64,000 nucleotides of DNA, from NCBI GenBank assembly GCA_965214295.1, contig OZ243944.1, positions 917,099 to 981,098 on the forward strand. The letters run 5' to 3'. Shown piece after piece: positions 10,085 to 62,130 of this stretch. How positions within the stretch are numbered: the first letter of the stretch is position 1; each line of letters begins with the position of its first letter. Below the pieces are notes generated by a model that had not been told where the DNA came from, ran no database searches, and saw only the letters and a list, made by a program, of their open reading frames with translations. The position numbers were made by a program, and so were the translations under genes. This stretch comes from Chloroflexota bacterium. Lineage in GTDB: Bacteria; Chloroflexota; UBA11872; UBA12225; JAJDUF01.

Positions 10085-10846
10085 ATGCGGCTTGGTCTGG
10101 TGACATACAACATCGCCATGGATTGGGACCTCTCCACGATCATCGAACGCTGTCCCCGGTTGGGATATGAGGGGGTTGAGCTGCGGACGACGCACGCGCA
10201 CGGCGTCGAGGACACACTTTCGTCAGCAGAACGCGCCGAGGTGCGCCGTCGCTTCGCGGACTCCGCCGTCGAGCTGGTCGGGCTGGGGACGATCTTCGAG
10301 TACCATGCGCTTGACCCGGCCGTCGTGCGCGAAAACGTCGAGGGCACGAAACGGTACGCGCAGTTGGCGGCGGATATCGGTGCCGGTGGGATCAAAGTCC
10401 GGCCGAACGGCCACCAGGAAGCGGCCGGCGTGCCCCGCGAGTATACCCTGGAGCAGATTGGGAACGCGCTGCGCGAGTGTGGGCCGGCGGCGGCGGACTG
10501 TGGGGTCACGATCCGCCTGGAGATGCATGGCACCGTGGCCGATGCCCGCGACATCTGCCGGATCATGGATACCGCCGACCATCCCAACGTGCGCGTCTGC
10601 TGGAACTCCAACCCCGTGGACGTGAAAGATGGCTCAGTGGCCCACGATTTCGCATTGATGCAGAACCTCATCGGCCTGGTCCACATCCACGACCTGACTG
10701 ATGAAGGGTATCCTTGGGCCGAGCTGTTCGGCTTGTTGCGTGGGTGCGACTACGCGGGGTTCTGTCTGGCGGAAATCCAGGCCAGCAGCGATCCTGAGCG
10801 CGTCCTGACCTACTTCCGCTCCCTCTACCGGGCCTATGGTGGCTGA
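10085..10846 (+). CDS. sugar phosphate isomerase/epimerase (xylose isomerase-like TIM barrel)
   Basis: 253 aa. MRLGLVTYN...GYEGVELR... pattern typical of the AP endonuclease 2 / TIM barrel family. Confidence 0.85.
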   Translation: MRLGLVTYNIAMDWDLSTIIERCPRLGYEGVELRTTHAHGVEDTLSSAERAEVRRRFADSAVELVGLGTIFEYHALDPAVVRENVEGTKRYAQLAADIGAGGIKVRPNGHQEAAGVPREYTLEQIGNALRECGPAAADCGVTIRLEMHGTVADARDICRIMDTADHPNVRVCWNSNPVDVKDGSVAHDFALMQNLIGLVHIHDLTDEGYPWAELFGLLRGCDYAGFCLAEIQASSDPERVLTYFRSLYRAYGG

Positions 10847-11312
10847 CCTCGAACTCCTAGCTCCTGCTCAGTCGGCGAGAGCACGGGGCACAGTGTCCGT
10901 CCGGTCAACGGCAGATTGTGGACTACGGTTGGGCCGGCTCGTGGCGGTCGGTCTGCTGGCCTGGCTGCTCATCGCCTGCGGCGGTGGAGACGGCGGCAGC
11001 TCTGGTGCGAGCGGCCCCCCGGCCGGCCGCACGATCAAGATGACGATGCTGGACACGATGAAGTTCGTCCCCGATCGCTTCACAGTCAAGGCGGGAGAGA
11101 CCGTGCGCGTGGAGCTGACGAACAAGGGCGTGCTGATCCATGACTTTGTCTTCCGCGACGGGGAAAAGGACGTCAGGGTGGAACTGAGTGGGGGTAAGAA
11201 CGGCGTGGCCTCGTTCATGGCGCCGACGGTGCCGGGCGAGTACGAGTTCGCCTGCATCGTGCCAGGCCATACAGAAGCCGGGATGAAGGGGGTCATGCGT
11301 GTCGTCGCCTAG
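10836..11312 (+). CDS. cupredoxin (type-1 copper, plastocyanin/azurin-like) lipoprotein
   Basis: Lipobox LLIACGG. Cu ligands HDF...CIVPGHTEAGM. Overlaps ctaA start. Confidence 0.8.
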   Translation: MVADLELLAPAQSARARGTVSVRSTADCGLRLGRLVAVGLLAWLLIACGGGDGGSSGASGPPAGRTIKMTMLDTMKFVPDRFTVKAGETVRVELTNKGVLIHDFVFRDGEKDVRVELSGGKNGVASFMAPTVPGEYEFACIVPGHTEAGMKGVMRVVA

Positions 11313-13347
11313 TGGCGCCGGTCCGGGGAGCGTGATCCCGGACGGTGTCGGGCGGGCGCCGGGGCGCTTTCGGTGGCTCGTCCTTGCCACCATCGCTGCG
11401 ACCTACCTCCTGATCGTGATGGGCGCCGTGGTGCGCGTGACCGGCTCTGGGCTGGGCTGCCCGGACTGGCCACTCTGCTACGGGCGCCTCTTTCCGCCGC
11501 TCGAATTCGCGCCGTTGCTCGAATACACGCACCGGCTCGTAGGCGCCATCGTTTCGGCGCTGATCGTGGCCGTCGTGGGGAGTATCTGGCTGCGCTTCCG
11601 TCACCACCGGCGGCTGGTGGTGCTAGCGAGTGGCGTCGTAGTACTACTGGTCATCCAGATCGGCTTGGGGGCGGTGACGGTCCTCACGGAGCTGTCCCCG
11701 CTGGTGGTGCTCATCCACCTTGGGTTGGCGATGCTGGTGTTGGGTGCCCTGGTCATGCTCGCGGTATACACGGGGCCGGTCGGTGGTGGCGCCCCGACGA
11801 CCGGCGATAGTCGGCAGCCGGAGCAATGGGTGGGGTTCCGCACGCTGGTCCTCACCACCGCAGCGGCCATCTACGCCTTGGTGCTGACCGGCGCGGCCGT
11901 CCGGGCCACGGGCGCTACGTGGTCCTGCATCGGCTGGCCCGACTGCAACGGAATACTGCTCCCGCTGGGGGTAGACCCGCTCGTTGATACTCACCTGCTG
12001 CATCGGTTTACCGCGTACACCATCGCGGTGCTGGCAGTGCTGACGGTGGTGCGGGCGCGGTTGTGGCGGCGCCGGTTTCCGGCGGTGTGGTGGGGGGCGC
12101 TGGCGCTGGTGGCCGGCGTCGTTGCCCAAGGCGCAATCGGGGTTTGGGGAGTCACGGCCGGGTTCGTGCCGCTGGTCCAGGCCCTCCACGTCGCCGGGGC
12201 GTCGGCGGCCTGGACGGCGGCCGTGGCATTGGCCGCGCTGGTGACGCGCTCGTCTGCACCAGCCGCCAGTGGGGGTGTAGCGGAGCCGCTGCCGGCCGAT
12301 GTTGGCCACCGCCGCACCACATCTGGCCGCATCCGTGCGGCGGTGGCCGACGACCCACCGCCGCCCCCTCTCTCTCCGCTGGTAGAGAGAGGGCCGGATG
12401 GTGAAGCCGCCGAGAGATCCCTGTACCGAGCAAGCGCGGAGGGCGTAGGGGCGCAGCATGCTGCGCCCCTACACGACCGCCGTAGGCCACTGTCCGGCTT
12501 CCTGCAGTTGACCAAGCCGCGGATCGTGCTGCTCTTACTCGCGCCGACGCTCTGCGCGATGATCGTCGCCGCCGACGGCTGGCCCTCTCCGCTCCTCGTC
12601 GGCGCGACCCTGTTGGGCGGGGCGCTGGCCGCCGGGGCCGCGAACGCCTTCAACCACTACCTGGATCGCGACATTGACGCGATCATGCGCCGCACCGCGC
12701 ACCGCGCGCTCCCGGCGGGGGTCCTCCGGCCGCGGCAGGCGGTGTGGTTTGGCTTGGTGCTGGCCGCGCTGTCGTTCGTCGTGCTGACCGTGTTTGCGAA
12801 CCTGTTGGCGGCGCTGCTGACACAGGCGGCTATTGTGTTCTACGTCTTCGTCTACACGCGCTGGCTCAAGCGGTCGTCGCCCAGCAATATCGTCATCGGG
12901 GGCGCTGCCGGGGCAGTGCCCCCCTTGGTAGGGTGGGCGGCAGTGACCGAGAGCATCGGGCTGCTCGCGCTGTACCTGTTTGCCATCATCTTCTACTGGA
13001 CGCCGCCGCATTTCTGGGCACTCGCGCTGCTCATCAAGGACGACTACGCCCGCGCGCGTATTCCCATGCTGCCGGTCGTGCGCGGCGGTGCCGAGACGCG
13101 GCGGCAGATCGTGCTGTATTCGCTGCTCATGGTGGCGATCACGCTGCTGCTGGTTCCCTTCCAGCTGGCCGGCCCGTTCTACCTGGCGAGCGCCGTCCTG
13201 CTCGGGGGACTGTTCGTCTTCTATGCGGTGCGTCTGCTGCGCGAGGCCTCGGCGTTGGCGGCCCGGCTCCTGTTCAAGTATTCGGTGGTCTACCTCTACC
13301 TCATCCTAGCGGCTATTGTGGTGGACCAGAAGTTCATCGGCGTTTAA
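11299..13347 (+). CDS. ctaA-ctaB: single ORF encoding haem A synthase (CtaA/COX15) fused to protohaem IX farnesyltransferase (CtaB/COX10)
   Basis: N-terminal GSGLGCPDWPLC plus His-bearing TM helices (CtaA). C-terminal LTKPRIV and NHYLDRDID (UbiA-type CtaB). No in-frame stop. The joint at 12270-12500 is built from palindromic repeats. Confidence 0.85.
   Translation: MSSPSGAGPGSVIPDGVGRAPGRFRWLVLATIAATYLLIVMGAVVRVTGSGLGCPDWPLCYGRLFPPLEFAPLLEYTHRLVGAIVSALIVAVVGSIWLRFRHHRRLVVLASGVVVLLVIQIGLGAVTVLTELSPLVVLIHLGLAMLVLGALVMLAVYTGPVGGGAPTTGDSRQPEQWVGFRTLVLTTAAAIYALVLTGAAVRATGATWSCIGWPDCNGILLPLGVDPLVDTHLLHRFTAYTIAVLAVLTVVRARLWRRRFPAVWWGALALVAGVVAQGAIGVWGVTAGFVPLVQALHVAGASAAWTAAVALAALVTRSSAPAASGGVAEPLPADVGHRRTTSGRIRAAVADDPPPPPLSPLVERGPDGEAAERSLYRASAEGVGAQHAAPLHDRRRPLSGFLQLTKPRIVLLLLAPTLCAMIVAADGWPSPLLVGATLLGGALAAGAANAFNHYLDRDIDAIMRRTAHRALPAGVLRPRQAVWFGLVLAALSFVVLTVFANLLAALLTQAAIVFYVFVYTRWLKRSSPSNIVIGGAAGAVPPLVGWAAVTESIGLLALYLFAIIFYWTPPHFWALALLIKDDYARARIPMLPVVRGGAETRRQIVLYSLLMVAITLLLVPFQLAGPFYLASAVLLGGLFVFYAVRLLREASALAARLLFKYSVVYLYLILAAIVVDQKFIGV
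12304..12472. repeat. mosaic of three different palindromic elements (E, D and C types) forming the ctaA-ctaB joint
   Basis: E: GGCCACCGCCGCAC-N17-GTGCGGCGGTGGCC, 12304-12348. D: CCCTCTCTC...GAGAGAGGG, 12364-12393. C: GTAGGGGCGCAGCATGCTGCGCCCCTAC, 12445-12472. Confidence 0.85.
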
Positions 13348-13413: not shown

Positions 13414-13734
13414 TTGATAAACGTGAGCGTCAAGAATCGCCTACAGCCGGTGCATCCGGGCGACATATTGCGTGACGAGTTGGCCGAGCTTGGTATGTCG
13501 GTTGGCGCGCTCGCCGAGGCGTTGGCTGTGCCAACCAACCGCATTATGGCGATTTTGAGGCGTGAACACGGAATTACTGCCGATATGGCACTGTGCTTGT
13601 CGCGTTATTTCGGCACGACGCCGCAACTGTGGCTGAACCTACAGCAGACGTTTGAGCTGCGAGCGGCGGAGATTCAAACCGGGCAGGACATCGCGGAGCG
13701 GGTAAGGCCGAGAGAGCCGGCGCTAGTTGACTGA
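13414..13734 (+). CDS. higA: HigA-family antitoxin (XRE-type HTH), no partner toxin gene visible
   Basis: PVHPGDILRDELAELGMSVGALAEALAVPTNRI...WLNLQ is the HigA/VapI signature. Confidence 0.85.
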   Translation: MINVSVKNRLQPVHPGDILRDELAELGMSVGALAEALAVPTNRIMAILRREHGITADMALCLSRYFGTTPQLWLNLQQTFELRAAEIQTGQDIAERVRPREPALVD

Positions 13735-13802: not shown

Positions 13803-13886
13803 GTCATTCCGGCTTCCGCCGGAATCCAGATGCCTGGGACCGTAGACCGCAACCCCGCCCCGGATTCCCACTTGCGCGGGAATGAC
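13803..13886. repeat. two A-type hairpins in opposite orientation
   Basis: GTCATTCCGGCTTCCGCCGGAATCC (13803-13827) and GGATTCCCACTTGCGCGGGAATGAC (13862-13886). Confidence 0.82.
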
Positions 13887-13935
13887 CGGGCAATGTCAAC
13901 ACAACCTAGTGGTCCGGCCGGGAACCTCTCGTGAC

Positions 13936-14553
13936 ATGAAGACTGCGACGAGGCGCGTCCTCGGTGGCGTCGGGTTGGGGCTGGCGGCGGCCGCGCTGGC
14001 CGGGTGCGGCGCGGCCGCGAAGGAGCTGCCGAGCTACGGCGCGGCGCCGTCCTTCGCGCTGACCGATCAACACGGGCAGCCGTTCGGTAGTGCGGATATC
14101 GGCCAGCGGACGGCGTTGGTCAGCTTCGTCTTTACGACCTGTACGGAGTGGTGCCCAGTCCTCAGCCCCAAGCTGCGCGCGGCACAGGAGCAGCTCCGCG
14201 CCGATGGCTTGCTCGGCAGCAAGGTGCTGCTACTCTCCATCACCGTAGACCCACAACGGGATACCCCGGCCAAGCTGGCGGCCTATGCCCGGCGCTACGC
14301 GGCCGATCCGAGCCACTGGCGCTTCCTGACGGGGACTCCTGCCGAGATACAGCGTGTAGTCGTCGGTGGTTTTCGGGTAGGGTTGCTGCATCCGGCGCCA
14401 GCGGCGAGCGGCAGTGCAGCGGTGCCGCTGGCGATCACGCACAGCAACCGCTTCGTGATCGTAGACGGGGCCGGGGAAATCCGCAGCTACCTCCGCGGTG
14501 AGGAGGTCACGCCCGACGAGATTGTGCGTACCATTCGGAAGGTCGTTGTGTAG
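13936..14553 (+). CDS. SCO1/SenC-family copper chaperone (thioredoxin fold)
   Basis: Signal/lipobox LAGCG. CxxxC as TCTEWCP, plus downstream His. ORF 13882 extends into a repeat element, so ATG 13936 is preferred. Confidence 0.9.
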   Translation: MKTATRRVLGGVGLGLAAAALAGCGAAAKELPSYGAAPSFALTDQHGQPFGSADIGQRTALVSFVFTTCTEWCPVLSPKLRAAQEQLRADGLLGSKVLLLSITVDPQRDTPAKLAAYARRYAADPSHWRFLTGTPAEIQRVVVGGFRVGLLHPAPAASGSAAVPLAITHSNRFVIVDGAGEIRSYLRGEEVTPDEIVRTIRKVVV

Positions 14554-44722: not shown

Positions 44723-44811
44723 GACCGCCGGAGTTTTGGCTGGCGAGACGGAACCGGCCGCGCCAGCAGAGTAGTCCTGCTACGGGCATGATTGCAGCGC
44801 AAACGGTGATG

Positions 44812-44856
44812 GGCCAAAGCCGCACGGATAGGGACAGGTGTGGTGCGGCTTTGGCC
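44812..44856. repeat. E-type hairpin element (intergenic, upstream of GT9 gene)
   Basis: GGCCAAAGCCGCAC-ggatagggacaggtgtg-GTGCGGCTTTGGCC, a perfect 14-bp stem. Confidence 0.88.
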
Positions 44857-44865
44857 TATCAGCGC

Positions 44866-53695: not shown

Positions 53696-53723
53696 GTAGG
53701 GGCGCAGCATGCTGCGCCCCTAC
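53696..53723. repeat. C-type 28-nt perfect palindrome
   Basis: GTAGGGGCGCAGCATGCTGCGCCCCTAC, identical to 12445..12472. Degenerate copy near 34008..34033. Confidence 0.9.
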
Positions 53724-59286: not shown

Positions 59287-62130
59287 ATGCGTAGTGAAGA
59301 GATTCGCCGGCGCTTTGTCACGTATTTCGAGCGTCAAGGACATCTGGCTCTGCCAAGCGCCTCGCTCATCCCCCACGACGATCCGAGCGTGCTGTTCACC
59401 TCGGCGGGGATGCAGCAGTTCGCCCCCTACTTCGTCGGGGCCGCGGCGCCGCCGGCGCCCCGTCTTGTGACCGTCCAACGCTGCGTGCGGACGGACGACA
59501 TCGAAGAGGTCGGTGACAATACGCACCACACCTTCTTCGAGATGCTGGGACACTTCTCCTTTGGTGACTACTTCAAGCGGGAAGCCATCGCCTTCGCTTT
59601 CGAGTTTGTAACCAAGGAGCTAGGACTTCCTGCCGACCGTCTATGGGCGACGATCTTTGCCGGAGAGCCTGGCATTCCCCGCGATGATGAGGCGGAAGCA
59701 GCGTGGCAGGCAGTGGGTATTCCGGACAGCCGTATTCGGTCGTTCGGATTCGACGAGAATTGGTGGGGACTGGAGACCGGTCCGTGTGGGCCAGACTCGG
59801 AGATCCATATTGATCTCGGCCCAGAGGCCGGCTGCGGCCTCCCTGACGACCAGTGCGGACCGAACCACTGCAACCGTTTCTTCGAGTTCTGGAACGCGGT
59901 CTTCAACCAGTACAACAAAGCTGCCGATGGCACCCTGACGCCGCTCAAGCGCACCGGGATTGACACGGGCGCCGGTTTCGAGCGCATCGTGGCCCTCCTG
60001 CAGGACAAACCGTCAGCCTACGAGACCGATCTCTTCGCTCCCCTGATCGCTGCGGCGGCGGCGCAGACCGGGGTGGCCTATGGCAAGGCGCCGGATACGG
60101 ACCTCTCGCTCCGGGTCATCGCCGAGCACCTCCGCGCCGCGACCTTTCTGGTGGCCGACGGCGCGCTGCCCTCCAGCGAGGGGCGCGGTTACGTCGTGCG
60201 CCGGCTGATCCGCCGCGCTGTCCGGCACAGCCGCCTACTCGGCAGCGAAGTGCCAATTACCGGTCCGGTTGTCGCGGCCACCCTCGACCGGATGGCCGAG
60301 CACTACCCCCACCTGGCGCAGAAACGTGCCCTGATCGAGCGAGCCGCGGCGGACGAGGAGGCACAGTTCGAGCGGACCCTCGACGCCGGCACGCAGCTGC
60401 TGGAAGCGGAGGTCGCCGCGCTGAGGGCACAGGGAAATACCACCCTGCCGGGCGAGACGGCCTTTCGGCTCTACGATACGTTCGGCTTCCCGCTCCCGTT
60501 GACCGAGGAGATCGCCGCCGCGCAGGGCATGGAGGTGGATACGGACGATTTCGAGCAGCGCATGGCCGCGCAGCGCGAGCGCAGCCGGGCGGCGCAGCAG
60601 TTCGAGCAGTGGCGTGGCATCACGCTCCCGGCAGTCGAGGTCACGTTCGAGGGGTATGCCGGGACCGCGGTGGACGGCGCCGAGGTGTTGTGGATCGGAC
60701 CGGTGGCGGTGCCAGATAGTGCGGAATCGGCGCGTCAGGACAACGAGCCCGCCACCGCCGCACCACACCTGGCCCTATCCGTGCGGCGGTGGCCGGCTCC
60801 GGTAGCCGTAGCCGGGGCCGCGGCGATGATCGTCCTCGACCGCACACCCTTCTACGCCGAGGGCGGCGGGCAGGTAGCCGATAACGGGACCATCACCGGC
60901 CCACACGGACGCTTCACCGTACAGGACGTGCAGCGACCGGCCGGCAAGGTCATCGTGCATATCGGGGAAGTCGCCGAGGGCCAGCTGGCAGTCGGCGAGC
61001 GGGTCAGTGCCCACGTTGACCGCGCGCGGCGCGCTGCTACCGCTCGTCACCACAGCGCGACCCACCTCCTGCACGCTGCGCTGCGGGCAGTGCTGGGCGA
61101 GCACGTCCAGCAGTCCGGCTCCTTGGTTGCGCCGGAGCGGCTGCGCTTCGACTTCTCCCACCGGGGGGCCCTCGACCCCGACGAGCAGCGCGAGATCGAG
61201 CACCGGGTCAACGCCGCGATTCGCGCCAACCTGCCCGTGGAGCCGACGGTCATGCCGCTGCAAGAGGCATTGGCGAGCGGGGCGCTCGCGCTCTTCGACG
61301 AGCGTTATGGCGAGCAGGCACGGGTAGTCCACATCGGCGATCTCAGCCGTGAGCTGTGCGGTGGGACCCACGTCGCGCGAACGGGCGACATCGGCTCCTT
61401 CATGCTGACAGCGGAAGGGGGCATCGGCTCCGGCCTGCGCCGTGTCGAGGCGGTGACGGGTGCTGCCGCCGAGTCGTTGGCGGCTGATACCCGCGCCACG
61501 CTGGAGACGCTGAGTCACACGCTGGGCGTCCCGGCGGCCGAGGTGGTCGGGCGCGTGGAGCAGCTGCAAGCGGAGTTAGCGGAAACGCGCCGCCAACTGG
61601 CAGCGGCCAGTCGTCAATCCGACCAAAGCACGCTGGAAAGCGTCCTGCAGGAGGCGGTCGGGGTCAACGTGGCGACGCCAGAGCCGCACGATCCTATGGG
61701 AGTCGGTGGTGCGGCTCTGGCATGCCACGCGCATGTCTTGGCGACAGAGGTCGCGGTAGCCGACATGCACGCGCTGCGGGAAACGGGCGATTGGCTCCGC
61801 GACCACCTCCCTGGGCCGGCGGCGCTCATTCTCGGCACCACGCGGTCCAAACGACCGCAACTGCTGGTGACCGTGCCGCGCGAGCTGGTGAACAACGGCC
61901 TGAGTGCGGGCGCTTTGCTGCGCGAGGTGGCGGCGACCATGGGCGCAAAAGGGGGCGGCCGGCCGGCCATGGCTCAGGGCGGCGGCGGCGATCCTTCGCG
62001 CCTGGCAGCGGCGCTGGCTCACGGCCGCGAGCGGGCAATCGCGATTTTACGCGGTGGTGACACACCCGATCCGCATAAGGCAGCGCAATCCAAGGGGGCG
62101 CGGACCAAGCGGCCGGGTGGCGCCTCGTGA
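59287..62130 (+). CDS. alaS: alanine--tRNA ligase
   Basis: MRSEEIRRRFVTYFERQGH, FTSAGM, HHTFFEMLGHFSFGDYFK, editing-domain HxxxH (HSATHLLH), CGGTH, C-terminal DHHA1-like. Carries a repeat insertion at 60751..60793. Confidence 0.97.
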   Translation: MRSEEIRRRFVTYFERQGHLALPSASLIPHDDPSVLFTSAGMQQFAPYFVGAAAPPAPRLVTVQRCVRTDDIEEVGDNTHHTFFEMLGHFSFGDYFKREAIAFAFEFVTKELGLPADRLWATIFAGEPGIPRDDEAEAAWQAVGIPDSRIRSFGFDENWWGLETGPCGPDSEIHIDLGPEAGCGLPDDQCGPNHCNRFFEFWNAVFNQYNKAADGTLTPLKRTGIDTGAGFERIVALLQDKPSAYETDLFAPLIAAAAAQTGVAYGKAPDTDLSLRVIAEHLRAATFLVADGALPSSEGRGYVVRRLIRRAVRHSRLLGSEVPITGPVVAATLDRMAEHYPHLAQKRALIERAAADEEAQFERTLDAGTQLLEAEVAALRAQGNTTLPGETAFRLYDTFGFPLPLTEEIAAAQGMEVDTDDFEQRMAAQRERSRAAQQFEQWRGITLPAVEVTFEGYAGTAVDGAEVLWIGPVAVPDSAESARQDNEPATAAPHLALSVRRWPAPVAVAGAAAMIVLDRTPFYAEGGGQVADNGTITGPHGRFTVQDVQRPAGKVIVHIGEVAEGQLAVGERVSAHVDRARRAATARHHSATHLLHAALRAVLGEHVQQSGSLVAPERLRFDFSHRGALDPDEQREIEHRVNAAIRANLPVEPTVMPLQEALASGALALFDERYGEQARVVHIGDLSRELCGGTHVARTGDIGSFMLTAEGGIGSGLRRVEAVTGAAAESLAADTRATLETLSHTLGVPAAEVVGRVEQLQAELAETRRQLAAASRQSDQSTLESVLQEAVGVNVATPEPHDPMGVGGAALACHAHVLATEVAVADMHALRETGDWLRDHLPGPAALILGTTRSKRPQLLVTVPRELVNNGLSAGALLREVAATMGAKGGGRPAMAQGGGGDPSRLAAALAHGRERAIAILRGGDTPDPHKAAQSKGARTKRPGGAS
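60751..60793. repeat. E-type hairpin element (inverted orientation) in frame inside alaS
   Basis: GCCACCGCCGCAC-cacacctggccctatcc-GTGCGGCGGTGGC. The loop is the reverse complement of the 44812 loop with 1 mismatch. Translated as ATAAPHLALSVRRWP. Confidence 0.88.

Follow-up and report, generated by a model that had tools for sequence, protein, structure and literature searches.

Three dispersed hairpin repeats in frame within the inter-domain linker of a fused ctaA-ctaB gene in a Chloroflexota genome

In a 64,000-nt stretch of DNA from a Chloroflexota bacterium (assembly GCA_965214295.1, contig OZ243944.1, positions 917,099 to 981,098; hereafter the window), the genes for haem A synthase (CtaA) and haem O synthase (CtaB) form a single open reading frame (ORF), and the joint between the two enzymes is occupied by three palindromic repeat elements, designated E, D and C. 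This arrangement raises the question of whether the repeats created the fusion or entered a linker that already existed. Comparison of the locus with its relatives and with the rest of the genome, which is assembled as one 4.23-Mb contig of 65% GC, favors the second answer: an ancestral CtaA-CtaB fusion very probably gained three dispersed hairpin repeats in frame within its linker, in this lineage only. The fusion itself is known from other bacteria and archaea; the unusual part is the in-frame colonization of an inter-domain linker, in one genome, by repeats that resemble the palindromic elements of Rickettsia in their behavior.

Two complete enzymes and the joint between them

Both enzymes encoded by the fused ORF are complete, and no internal stop codon is present (Table 1). 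The CtaA half matches the Pfam family COX15-CtaA (PF02628) over residues 26–309 with 126.4 bits (cut-off 29.9), covering positions 2–322 of the 322 in the profile, and the structure of the Bacillus subtilis haem A synthase (PDB 6A2J) at E = 7e-19. It contains two Cys pairs, GCPDWPLC and SCIGWPDC, as in type 1 haem A synthase; both pairs are invariant across 16 close-relative sequences (alignment A2), as are H78, H140, H232, H235 and H297. The CtaB half matches the UbiA family (PF01040) over residues 413–661 with 221 bits and, over residues 394–677, two equivalog-level NCBIfam models of haem O synthase, NF003349 (373.7 bits, cut-off 246) and TIGR01473 (328.6 bits, cut-off 210). Its Asp-rich prenyltransferase motifs, NHYLDRDID (residues 452–460) and KDDYARARIP (residues 580–589), are likewise invariant in A2. 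A six-frame search of the genome finds no second copy of ctaA or ctaB.

The three hairpins of the joint belong to three unrelated repeat families. The two arms of E (12301–12317 and 12335–12351) are 17 nt each and 94% complementary in an inverted-repeat search, and the same search identifies a perfect 10-bp stem in D (12366–12375 and 12384–12393). A profile built with nhmmer from 233 other D copies, the linker copy excluded, matches 12363–12407 with a genome-wide E-value of 0.001; the linker D is therefore a diverged yet genuine member of its family, tail included. The C element is a perfect palindrome that recurs unchanged between ORFs elsewhere in the window, and a control with shuffled sequence gave no matches. 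The RNA of 12290–12490 is predicted to fold at -113.9 kcal/mol (z = -6.3) into a structure that includes the three hairpins; a search of 12200–12600 for a terminator-like site, comprising a GC-rich hairpin and a T-run, found none. The linker is predicted to yield the tryptic peptides IRAAVADDPPPPPLSPLVER, GPDGEAAER and ASAEGVGAQHAAPLHDR.

These results bear on a preliminary description of the window, made from its letters alone, which had read 11299–13347 as encoding CtaA and CtaB, each in full, in one frame and had taken the joint for a mosaic of three palindromic repeat elements that is itself translated. Both statements hold: profiles match each half, and each hairpin belongs to a repeat family. 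The E-type hairpin that it placed in a joint of ~80 codons is recovered by the inverted-repeat search (the joint is ~82 codons long), as is the D-type hairpin that it drew at 12364–12393, and the identity of the 28-nt C palindrome at 12445–12472 with the intergenic copy at 53696 is borne out. The claim that the E stems are identical to those of a copy inside alaS is correct as to the host gene, which Pfam identifies as alaS, and slightly overstated as to identity, as the linker copy and the alaS copy (60750–60794) differ at one of 28 specified stem positions, an outer base.

An old fusion and a linker altered in one lineage

The CtaA-CtaB fusion itself is real, old and already known. A six-frame search for ctaA-ctaB covered 30 relatives; in all eight congeners both halves lie in one stop-free open frame of 651–658 aa, with ctaA-ctaB ORFs of 648–654 aa. 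The fused frame is also present in several genomes of the same order or class (G012, G014, G023 and G029), and the same single ORF occurs in ~17 further protein clusters. A scan of one genome per species adds dozens of fused loci, with CtaA-CtaB matches spanning approximately residues 20–677, in lineages that include Ktedonobacteria, Limnocylindria, Thermomicrobiales, Actinomycetota, cyanobacteria, Gemmatimonadales and Dormibacterota. The preliminary description had mentioned reports of fused ctaA-ctaB genes in some thermophiles, and such fusions are indeed on record: CtaA "fused with CtaB" is listed for Deinococcus-Thermus, Chloroflexi, Ktedonobacter, Bdellovibrio and others (Degli Esposti et al. 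2021, PMC8239418), and 56% of archaeal type 1A haem A synthases are fused to haem O synthase (PMC12808453). Separate genes are found in one genome of the same order (G016, locus L013), in which ctaA (327 aa) and ctaB (338 aa) are distinct ORFs in different frames, with an 82-nt overlap. Within the order, ctaA and ctaB are thus subject to both fusion and fission.

The repeats have a far narrower distribution. Pattern searches for E, D and C find no copy within ctaAB in the eight congeners or in the closest metagenomic relatives (L101 and L102, 91% identical), the D profile has no match in the closest relatives even at E <= 100, and the repeat-free linkers of relatives are also seen in alignments A1 and A3. 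Because congeners and distant lineages alike are fused through repeat-free linkers, the fusion predates the repeats. In the comparison of related loci for a stop codon or repeats that the preliminary description had proposed, the congeneric loci are thus fused, stop-free and repeat-free, contrary to an origin of the fusion in the repeats. The 682-aa form is found once among 5.8 billion proteins, and the two-domain relatives returned by that search are 648–655 aa long and at most 91% identical to it.

Alignment with the closest relatives reveals how the linker has changed. In alignment A3, E corresponds to an exact 51-nt gap whose flanks align base for base; the relatives read CCGGC(C/A)GA(C/T) followed immediately by GACCCA(T/C)CGCCG, and the window carries 51 nt between GAT and GACCCACCG. 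The stretch downstream of E, which holds D and C, exceeds that of the closest relative by 36 nt. Compared with genes for proteins of 654 aa, the locus is longer by a net 84 nt (28 codons) and remains in frame, giving a linker of 82 aa in place of the ~54 aa calculated from the length difference for relatives of 648–655 aa. Hairpin DNA encodes ~37 of the 82 linker residues (~45%), and the old linker is still recognizable around the elements as CCGGA..GGATGA.. and ..CGT.GGCC.CTG.CCGGCTTC. When candidate intervals are deleted and the sequences re-aligned, a clear gain is obtained for E only and a slight one for D and C. The left-arm stem of E, CCACCGCCGC (12306–12315), is directly repeated in the native run of proline codons 4 nt downstream of the element (12355–12364), which suggests microhomology between E and its insertion target. 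The stem itself is not derived from the target, since other copies, among them the one in alaS, belong to the same stem subfamily. Among 36 fused ORFs from other lineages scanned for perfect stems of at least 9 bp, three had one, and these were weak and not similar to repetitive extragenic palindromes (REPs); hairpin colonization of the linker is an occasional event and not a general property of the fusion.

A reading of the 39 nt between D and C as old linker in a shifted frame (PPRDPCTEQARR compared with PPADEALQTARAN) was considered and is not established, manual comparison giving only ~58% DNA identity over 33 nt. A GGAGGG sequence also lies 13 nt upstream of an ATG at the center of the C palindrome (12439–12510); the resulting out-of-frame ORF of 17 codons is probably meaningless.

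Table 1. Positions in the window of the fused gene, its domains and the repeat elements of the linker, with related copies
Feature	Position	Strand	Remarks
Fused ctaA-ctaB ORF	11299..13347	+	682 aa; GTG start; 14-nt overlap with the end of the upstream cupredoxin gene
CtaA (haem A synthase) domain	11374..12225	+	aa 26-309; PF02628 and PDB 6A2J match
Inter-domain linker	12247..12492	+	~aa 317-398, 82 aa; from alignments with relatives
E-type hairpin element	12301..12351	+	51 nt, 17 codons; read as VGHRRTTSGRIRAAVAD in phase 0
D-type element	12363..12407	+	hairpin 12366-12393 and CCGGNNGGTGA-type tail; a diverged copy of the CCCCCTCTCC...GGAGAGGGGG-CCGGGGGGTGAGG family
C-type perfect 28-nt palindrome	12445..12472	+	ends GTAG...CTAC; translated VGAQHAAPL
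CtaB (haem O synthase) domain	12478..13329	+	aa 394-677; NF003349, TIGR01473, PF01040
C-type palindrome, identical intergenic copy	53696..53723		sequence match; sits between ORFs
E-type copy in alaS	60747..60797	+	same CCACCG stem subfamily as the linker copy

The neighborhood of ctaAB is that of oxidase biogenesis. A cupredoxin-like gene (10836–11312) runs into the start of ctaAB, and this overlap suggests translational coupling. Downstream lie a small helix-turn-helix-like ORF (13414–13734) with no Pfam match at 1e-3 and a gene for an SCO1/SenC copper chaperone (13882–14553).

The repeat families and the constraint on the linker

The three families are abundant throughout the genome. A Hamming scan identifies 136 copies of the E core (<=6 mismatches); the C core has 195 copies (<=4 mismatches), and a pattern match identifies 278 D hairpins. 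E is a 51-nt hairpin with a conserved core, GCCGCACCACACCTGGCNCCATCCGTGCGGC, and outer stems that are variable yet complementary; C copies are headed by GTAG and show compensatory stem variants; D consists of CCCCCTCTCC, a loop and GGAGAGGGGG, mostly followed by CCGGGGGGTGAGG. All nine genomes of the genus contain both E and C. Unlike the hairpins of the linker, the DNA that separates them is not repeated: 12352–12362 and 12395–12444 have at most 13 BLAST matches genome-wide (at most 4 across 12395–12441), as compared with 67–236 for the E and C cores. Many intergenic E copies are nested in the tail of a D element, in the arrangement ...GGAGAGGGGGCCGGGTG, ACGGGCC..E..GGCCCGT, CAGGGGGTGAGG (C1:1599643, 2020516, 1376153, 1777831 and others), and the families are therefore both nested and clustered. 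A search of the whole genome for a Y1/RAYT transposase (PF01797) returned no matches, and the control genomes were matched.

The families differ in their relation to coding sequence (CDS). Coding potential was scored by codon log-odds trained on 677 long ORFs, which distinguish the true reading frame from its five alternatives (1st percentile of in-frame scores, 0.27; 99th percentile of off-frame scores, 0.22), and a repeat was called in-CDS if both flanks had a coding score in the same open frame. By this measure 43–45% of random windows lie within CDS, as do 35 of 136 E copies (26%), ~5 genuine cases among 195 C copies and 6 of 278 D hairpins. The E family thus often resides within genes, and the C and D families are nearly excluded from coding DNA. 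The in-CDS E copies share a preferred reading phase, 29 of the 35 being read in phase 0, as is the linker copy. This bias is not explained by stop codons, because the E consensus is open in all six frames (manual translation). These 29 copies begin at codon position 1 and read TGQSRTTPGTIRAALAG in the sense or TGQSRTDGARCGAALAG in the antisense orientation (for example 60747–60797 and 44809–44859). The in-CDS C copies read VGAQHAAP, the same as the linker C copy.

Between residues 316 and 404 the only canonical in-frame start codons are a GTG within E (12343) and a TTG within the conserved LQLTKP (12508), and no Shine-Dalgarno-like motif lies upstream of either. The preliminary description, which found no separate start for ctaB, was right in this respect, and CtaB is most likely made only within the fusion. 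Linker lengths vary among relatives, whose proteins are 648–655 aa long, and always by whole codons. In one congeneric metagenomic relative (P0014), the linker RSRGRPTTRRRPLRPERMTRRTRTGRRR (A2 columns 325–400) corresponds to the usual linker DNA read in the +1 frame, with …PERMTRR… for …AGADDSP…, and the frame is restored before LAGFLQLTKP; either a compensated frameshift or two assembly errors would account for this. Because C and D elements are tolerated in it, because its length changes by whole codons, and in view of P0014, the linker behaves like intergenic DNA with respect to its sequence, not with respect to its frame.

An AlphaFold2 (AF2) model from the 16-sequence alignment is of low confidence (mean pLDDT 41, pTM 0.25), and only its secondary structure is used here. 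As assigned with DSSP, it has eight long helices and one helix of 6 residues before residue 316; the linker (residues 317–398) is mostly non-helical, with a short helix at residues 370–377, and has the lowest pLDDT.

These observations suggest the following course of events. Two membrane domains would be joined by a low-complexity linker rich in Pro, Ala and Asp. CtaA has eight helices and UbiA-fold enzymes begin in the cytoplasm, so the linker is probably cytoplasmic. In this lineage only, the pre-existing linker acquired the 51-nt E element as 17 codons in the usual phase of its family, a D element of ~45 nt and the 28-nt C element. Its amino acids would be nearly unconstrained and its reading frame constrained, since CtaB, having no start of its own, would be made by read-through from ctaA. 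With CtaB dependent on read-through, insertions that kept or restored the frame would therefore have survived, and C and D elements, purged from almost all other coding DNA, may persist here as translated passenger DNA.

The locus can be compared with three known systems. Like the CtaA-CtaB fusions described previously (PMC8239418, PMC12808453), it is a single ORF with the same domain order, in which a type 1 CtaA bearing two Cys pairs precedes a complete haem O synthase of the UbiA fold; such fusions are present throughout the genus and in neighboring Chloroflexota. It differs from them in a linker 28 aa longer than that of any close relative, ~45% of which derives from hairpin repeats. Rickettsia palindromic elements (RPEs; Ogata et al. 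2000, reviewed in PMC10969869) are likewise dispersed palindromes translated in frame within working genes, with filled and empty sites among relatives and a preferred reading frame. However, RPEs are ~100–150 bp long, whereas the elements described here are 28–51 nt, are unrelated to RPEs in sequence and occur in Chloroflexota; in addition, three families are stacked in one linker, and two of these, C and D, are otherwise nearly confined to intergenic DNA. The C unit resembles the REPs of proteobacteria in being a GC-rich palindrome headed by GTAG, in its hundreds of copies and compensatory stems, and in often clustering with other hairpins. Unlike REP/RAYT systems, this genome lacks a Y1/RAYT gene despite its ~195 GTAG-headed palindromes. 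Bacterial interspersed mosaic elements (BIMEs) combine alternating REP types with conserved, repeated linkers, whereas the cluster here joins three unrelated families through unrepeated spacers and, unlike REP and BIME clusters, lies inside coding sequence. For this reason the assignment of the linker cluster to BIMEs was rejected.

Alternative origins and implications

It was proposed in the preliminary description that an intergenic REP/BIME cluster between once-separate ctaA and ctaB genes became translated and so created a bifunctional enzyme. The joint is indeed rich in elements that are normally intergenic, and the separate, overlapping genes of G016 provide a same-order example of unfused ctaA and ctaB. 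Nevertheless, such an origin is contradicted by the comparisons and extremely improbable, as all eight congeners and the 91%-identical metagenomic relatives are already fused through repeat-free linkers, and the flanks of the E insertion match the linker of the relatives base for base. Mis-assembly of repeat-containing reads, in a genome that is derived from a metagenome, could have produced the hairpin cluster or its frame, and the single occurrence of the 682-aa form is in keeping with such an artifact. This, too, is very unlikely: the 172 nt that were inserted and rearranged leave the frame intact, E adds exactly 51 nt between flanks that are perfectly conserved, each of the three elements fits its family well, and the contig is a single 4.23-Mb piece.

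The hairpin cluster might instead act in the RNA or the protein, by slowing ribosomes between the two membrane domains, by setting the ratio of CtaA to CtaA-CtaB, or by providing a site for post-translational cleavage into the two enzymes. The high predicted stability of the linker RNA points in this direction, as does a linker that is 28 aa longer than in relatives and contains more Arg. An active role is unlikely, however, since no relative has the elements and no conserved function can therefore depend on them; furthermore, the same families lie mostly between genes, and the terminator-like T-run is absent. A more speculative extension, and an improbable one, is that the linkers of fused membrane enzymes are in-gene safe harbors for selfish hairpin DNA and that the RNA cluster has been co-opted, either to pace translation from CtaA to CtaB or to fix the proportion of truncated CtaA relative to the full-length fusion. 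Three stacked families have made this linker longer by half, and if this idea is true, repeat invasion would be a route to evolving linker length and domain coupling.

Several points weigh against the preferred interpretation, the in-frame gain of three repeats by the linker of an ancestral fusion. The edges of the D and C events are ambiguous in the alignment, and D is a diverged member of its family, as its E-value of 0.001 indicates. It is striking that one lineage has three families within 170 nt; a single composite event, or gene conversion, might account for this in place of three independent insertions. The AF2 model is too poor to demonstrate an undisturbed enzyme fold, and the sequence of the joint rests on one single-contig assembly.

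The in-frame colonization of this linker does not alter the known pathway of haem A biosynthesis. For annotation, it means that repeat-rich, low-complexity joints are not to be read as gene boundaries or as evidence of a pseudogene. More broadly, minimal constraint on the protein allows translation of REP-like hairpins that are normally intergenic, and the case helps to separate the forces that exclude repeats from genes, namely peptide toxicity and DNA or RNA structure. The locus is thus a natural experiment in which only the frame of the linker, and not its sequence, appears to be under selection, which argues that read-through from ctaA is the sole source of CtaB and that the fusion functions as a single polypeptide.

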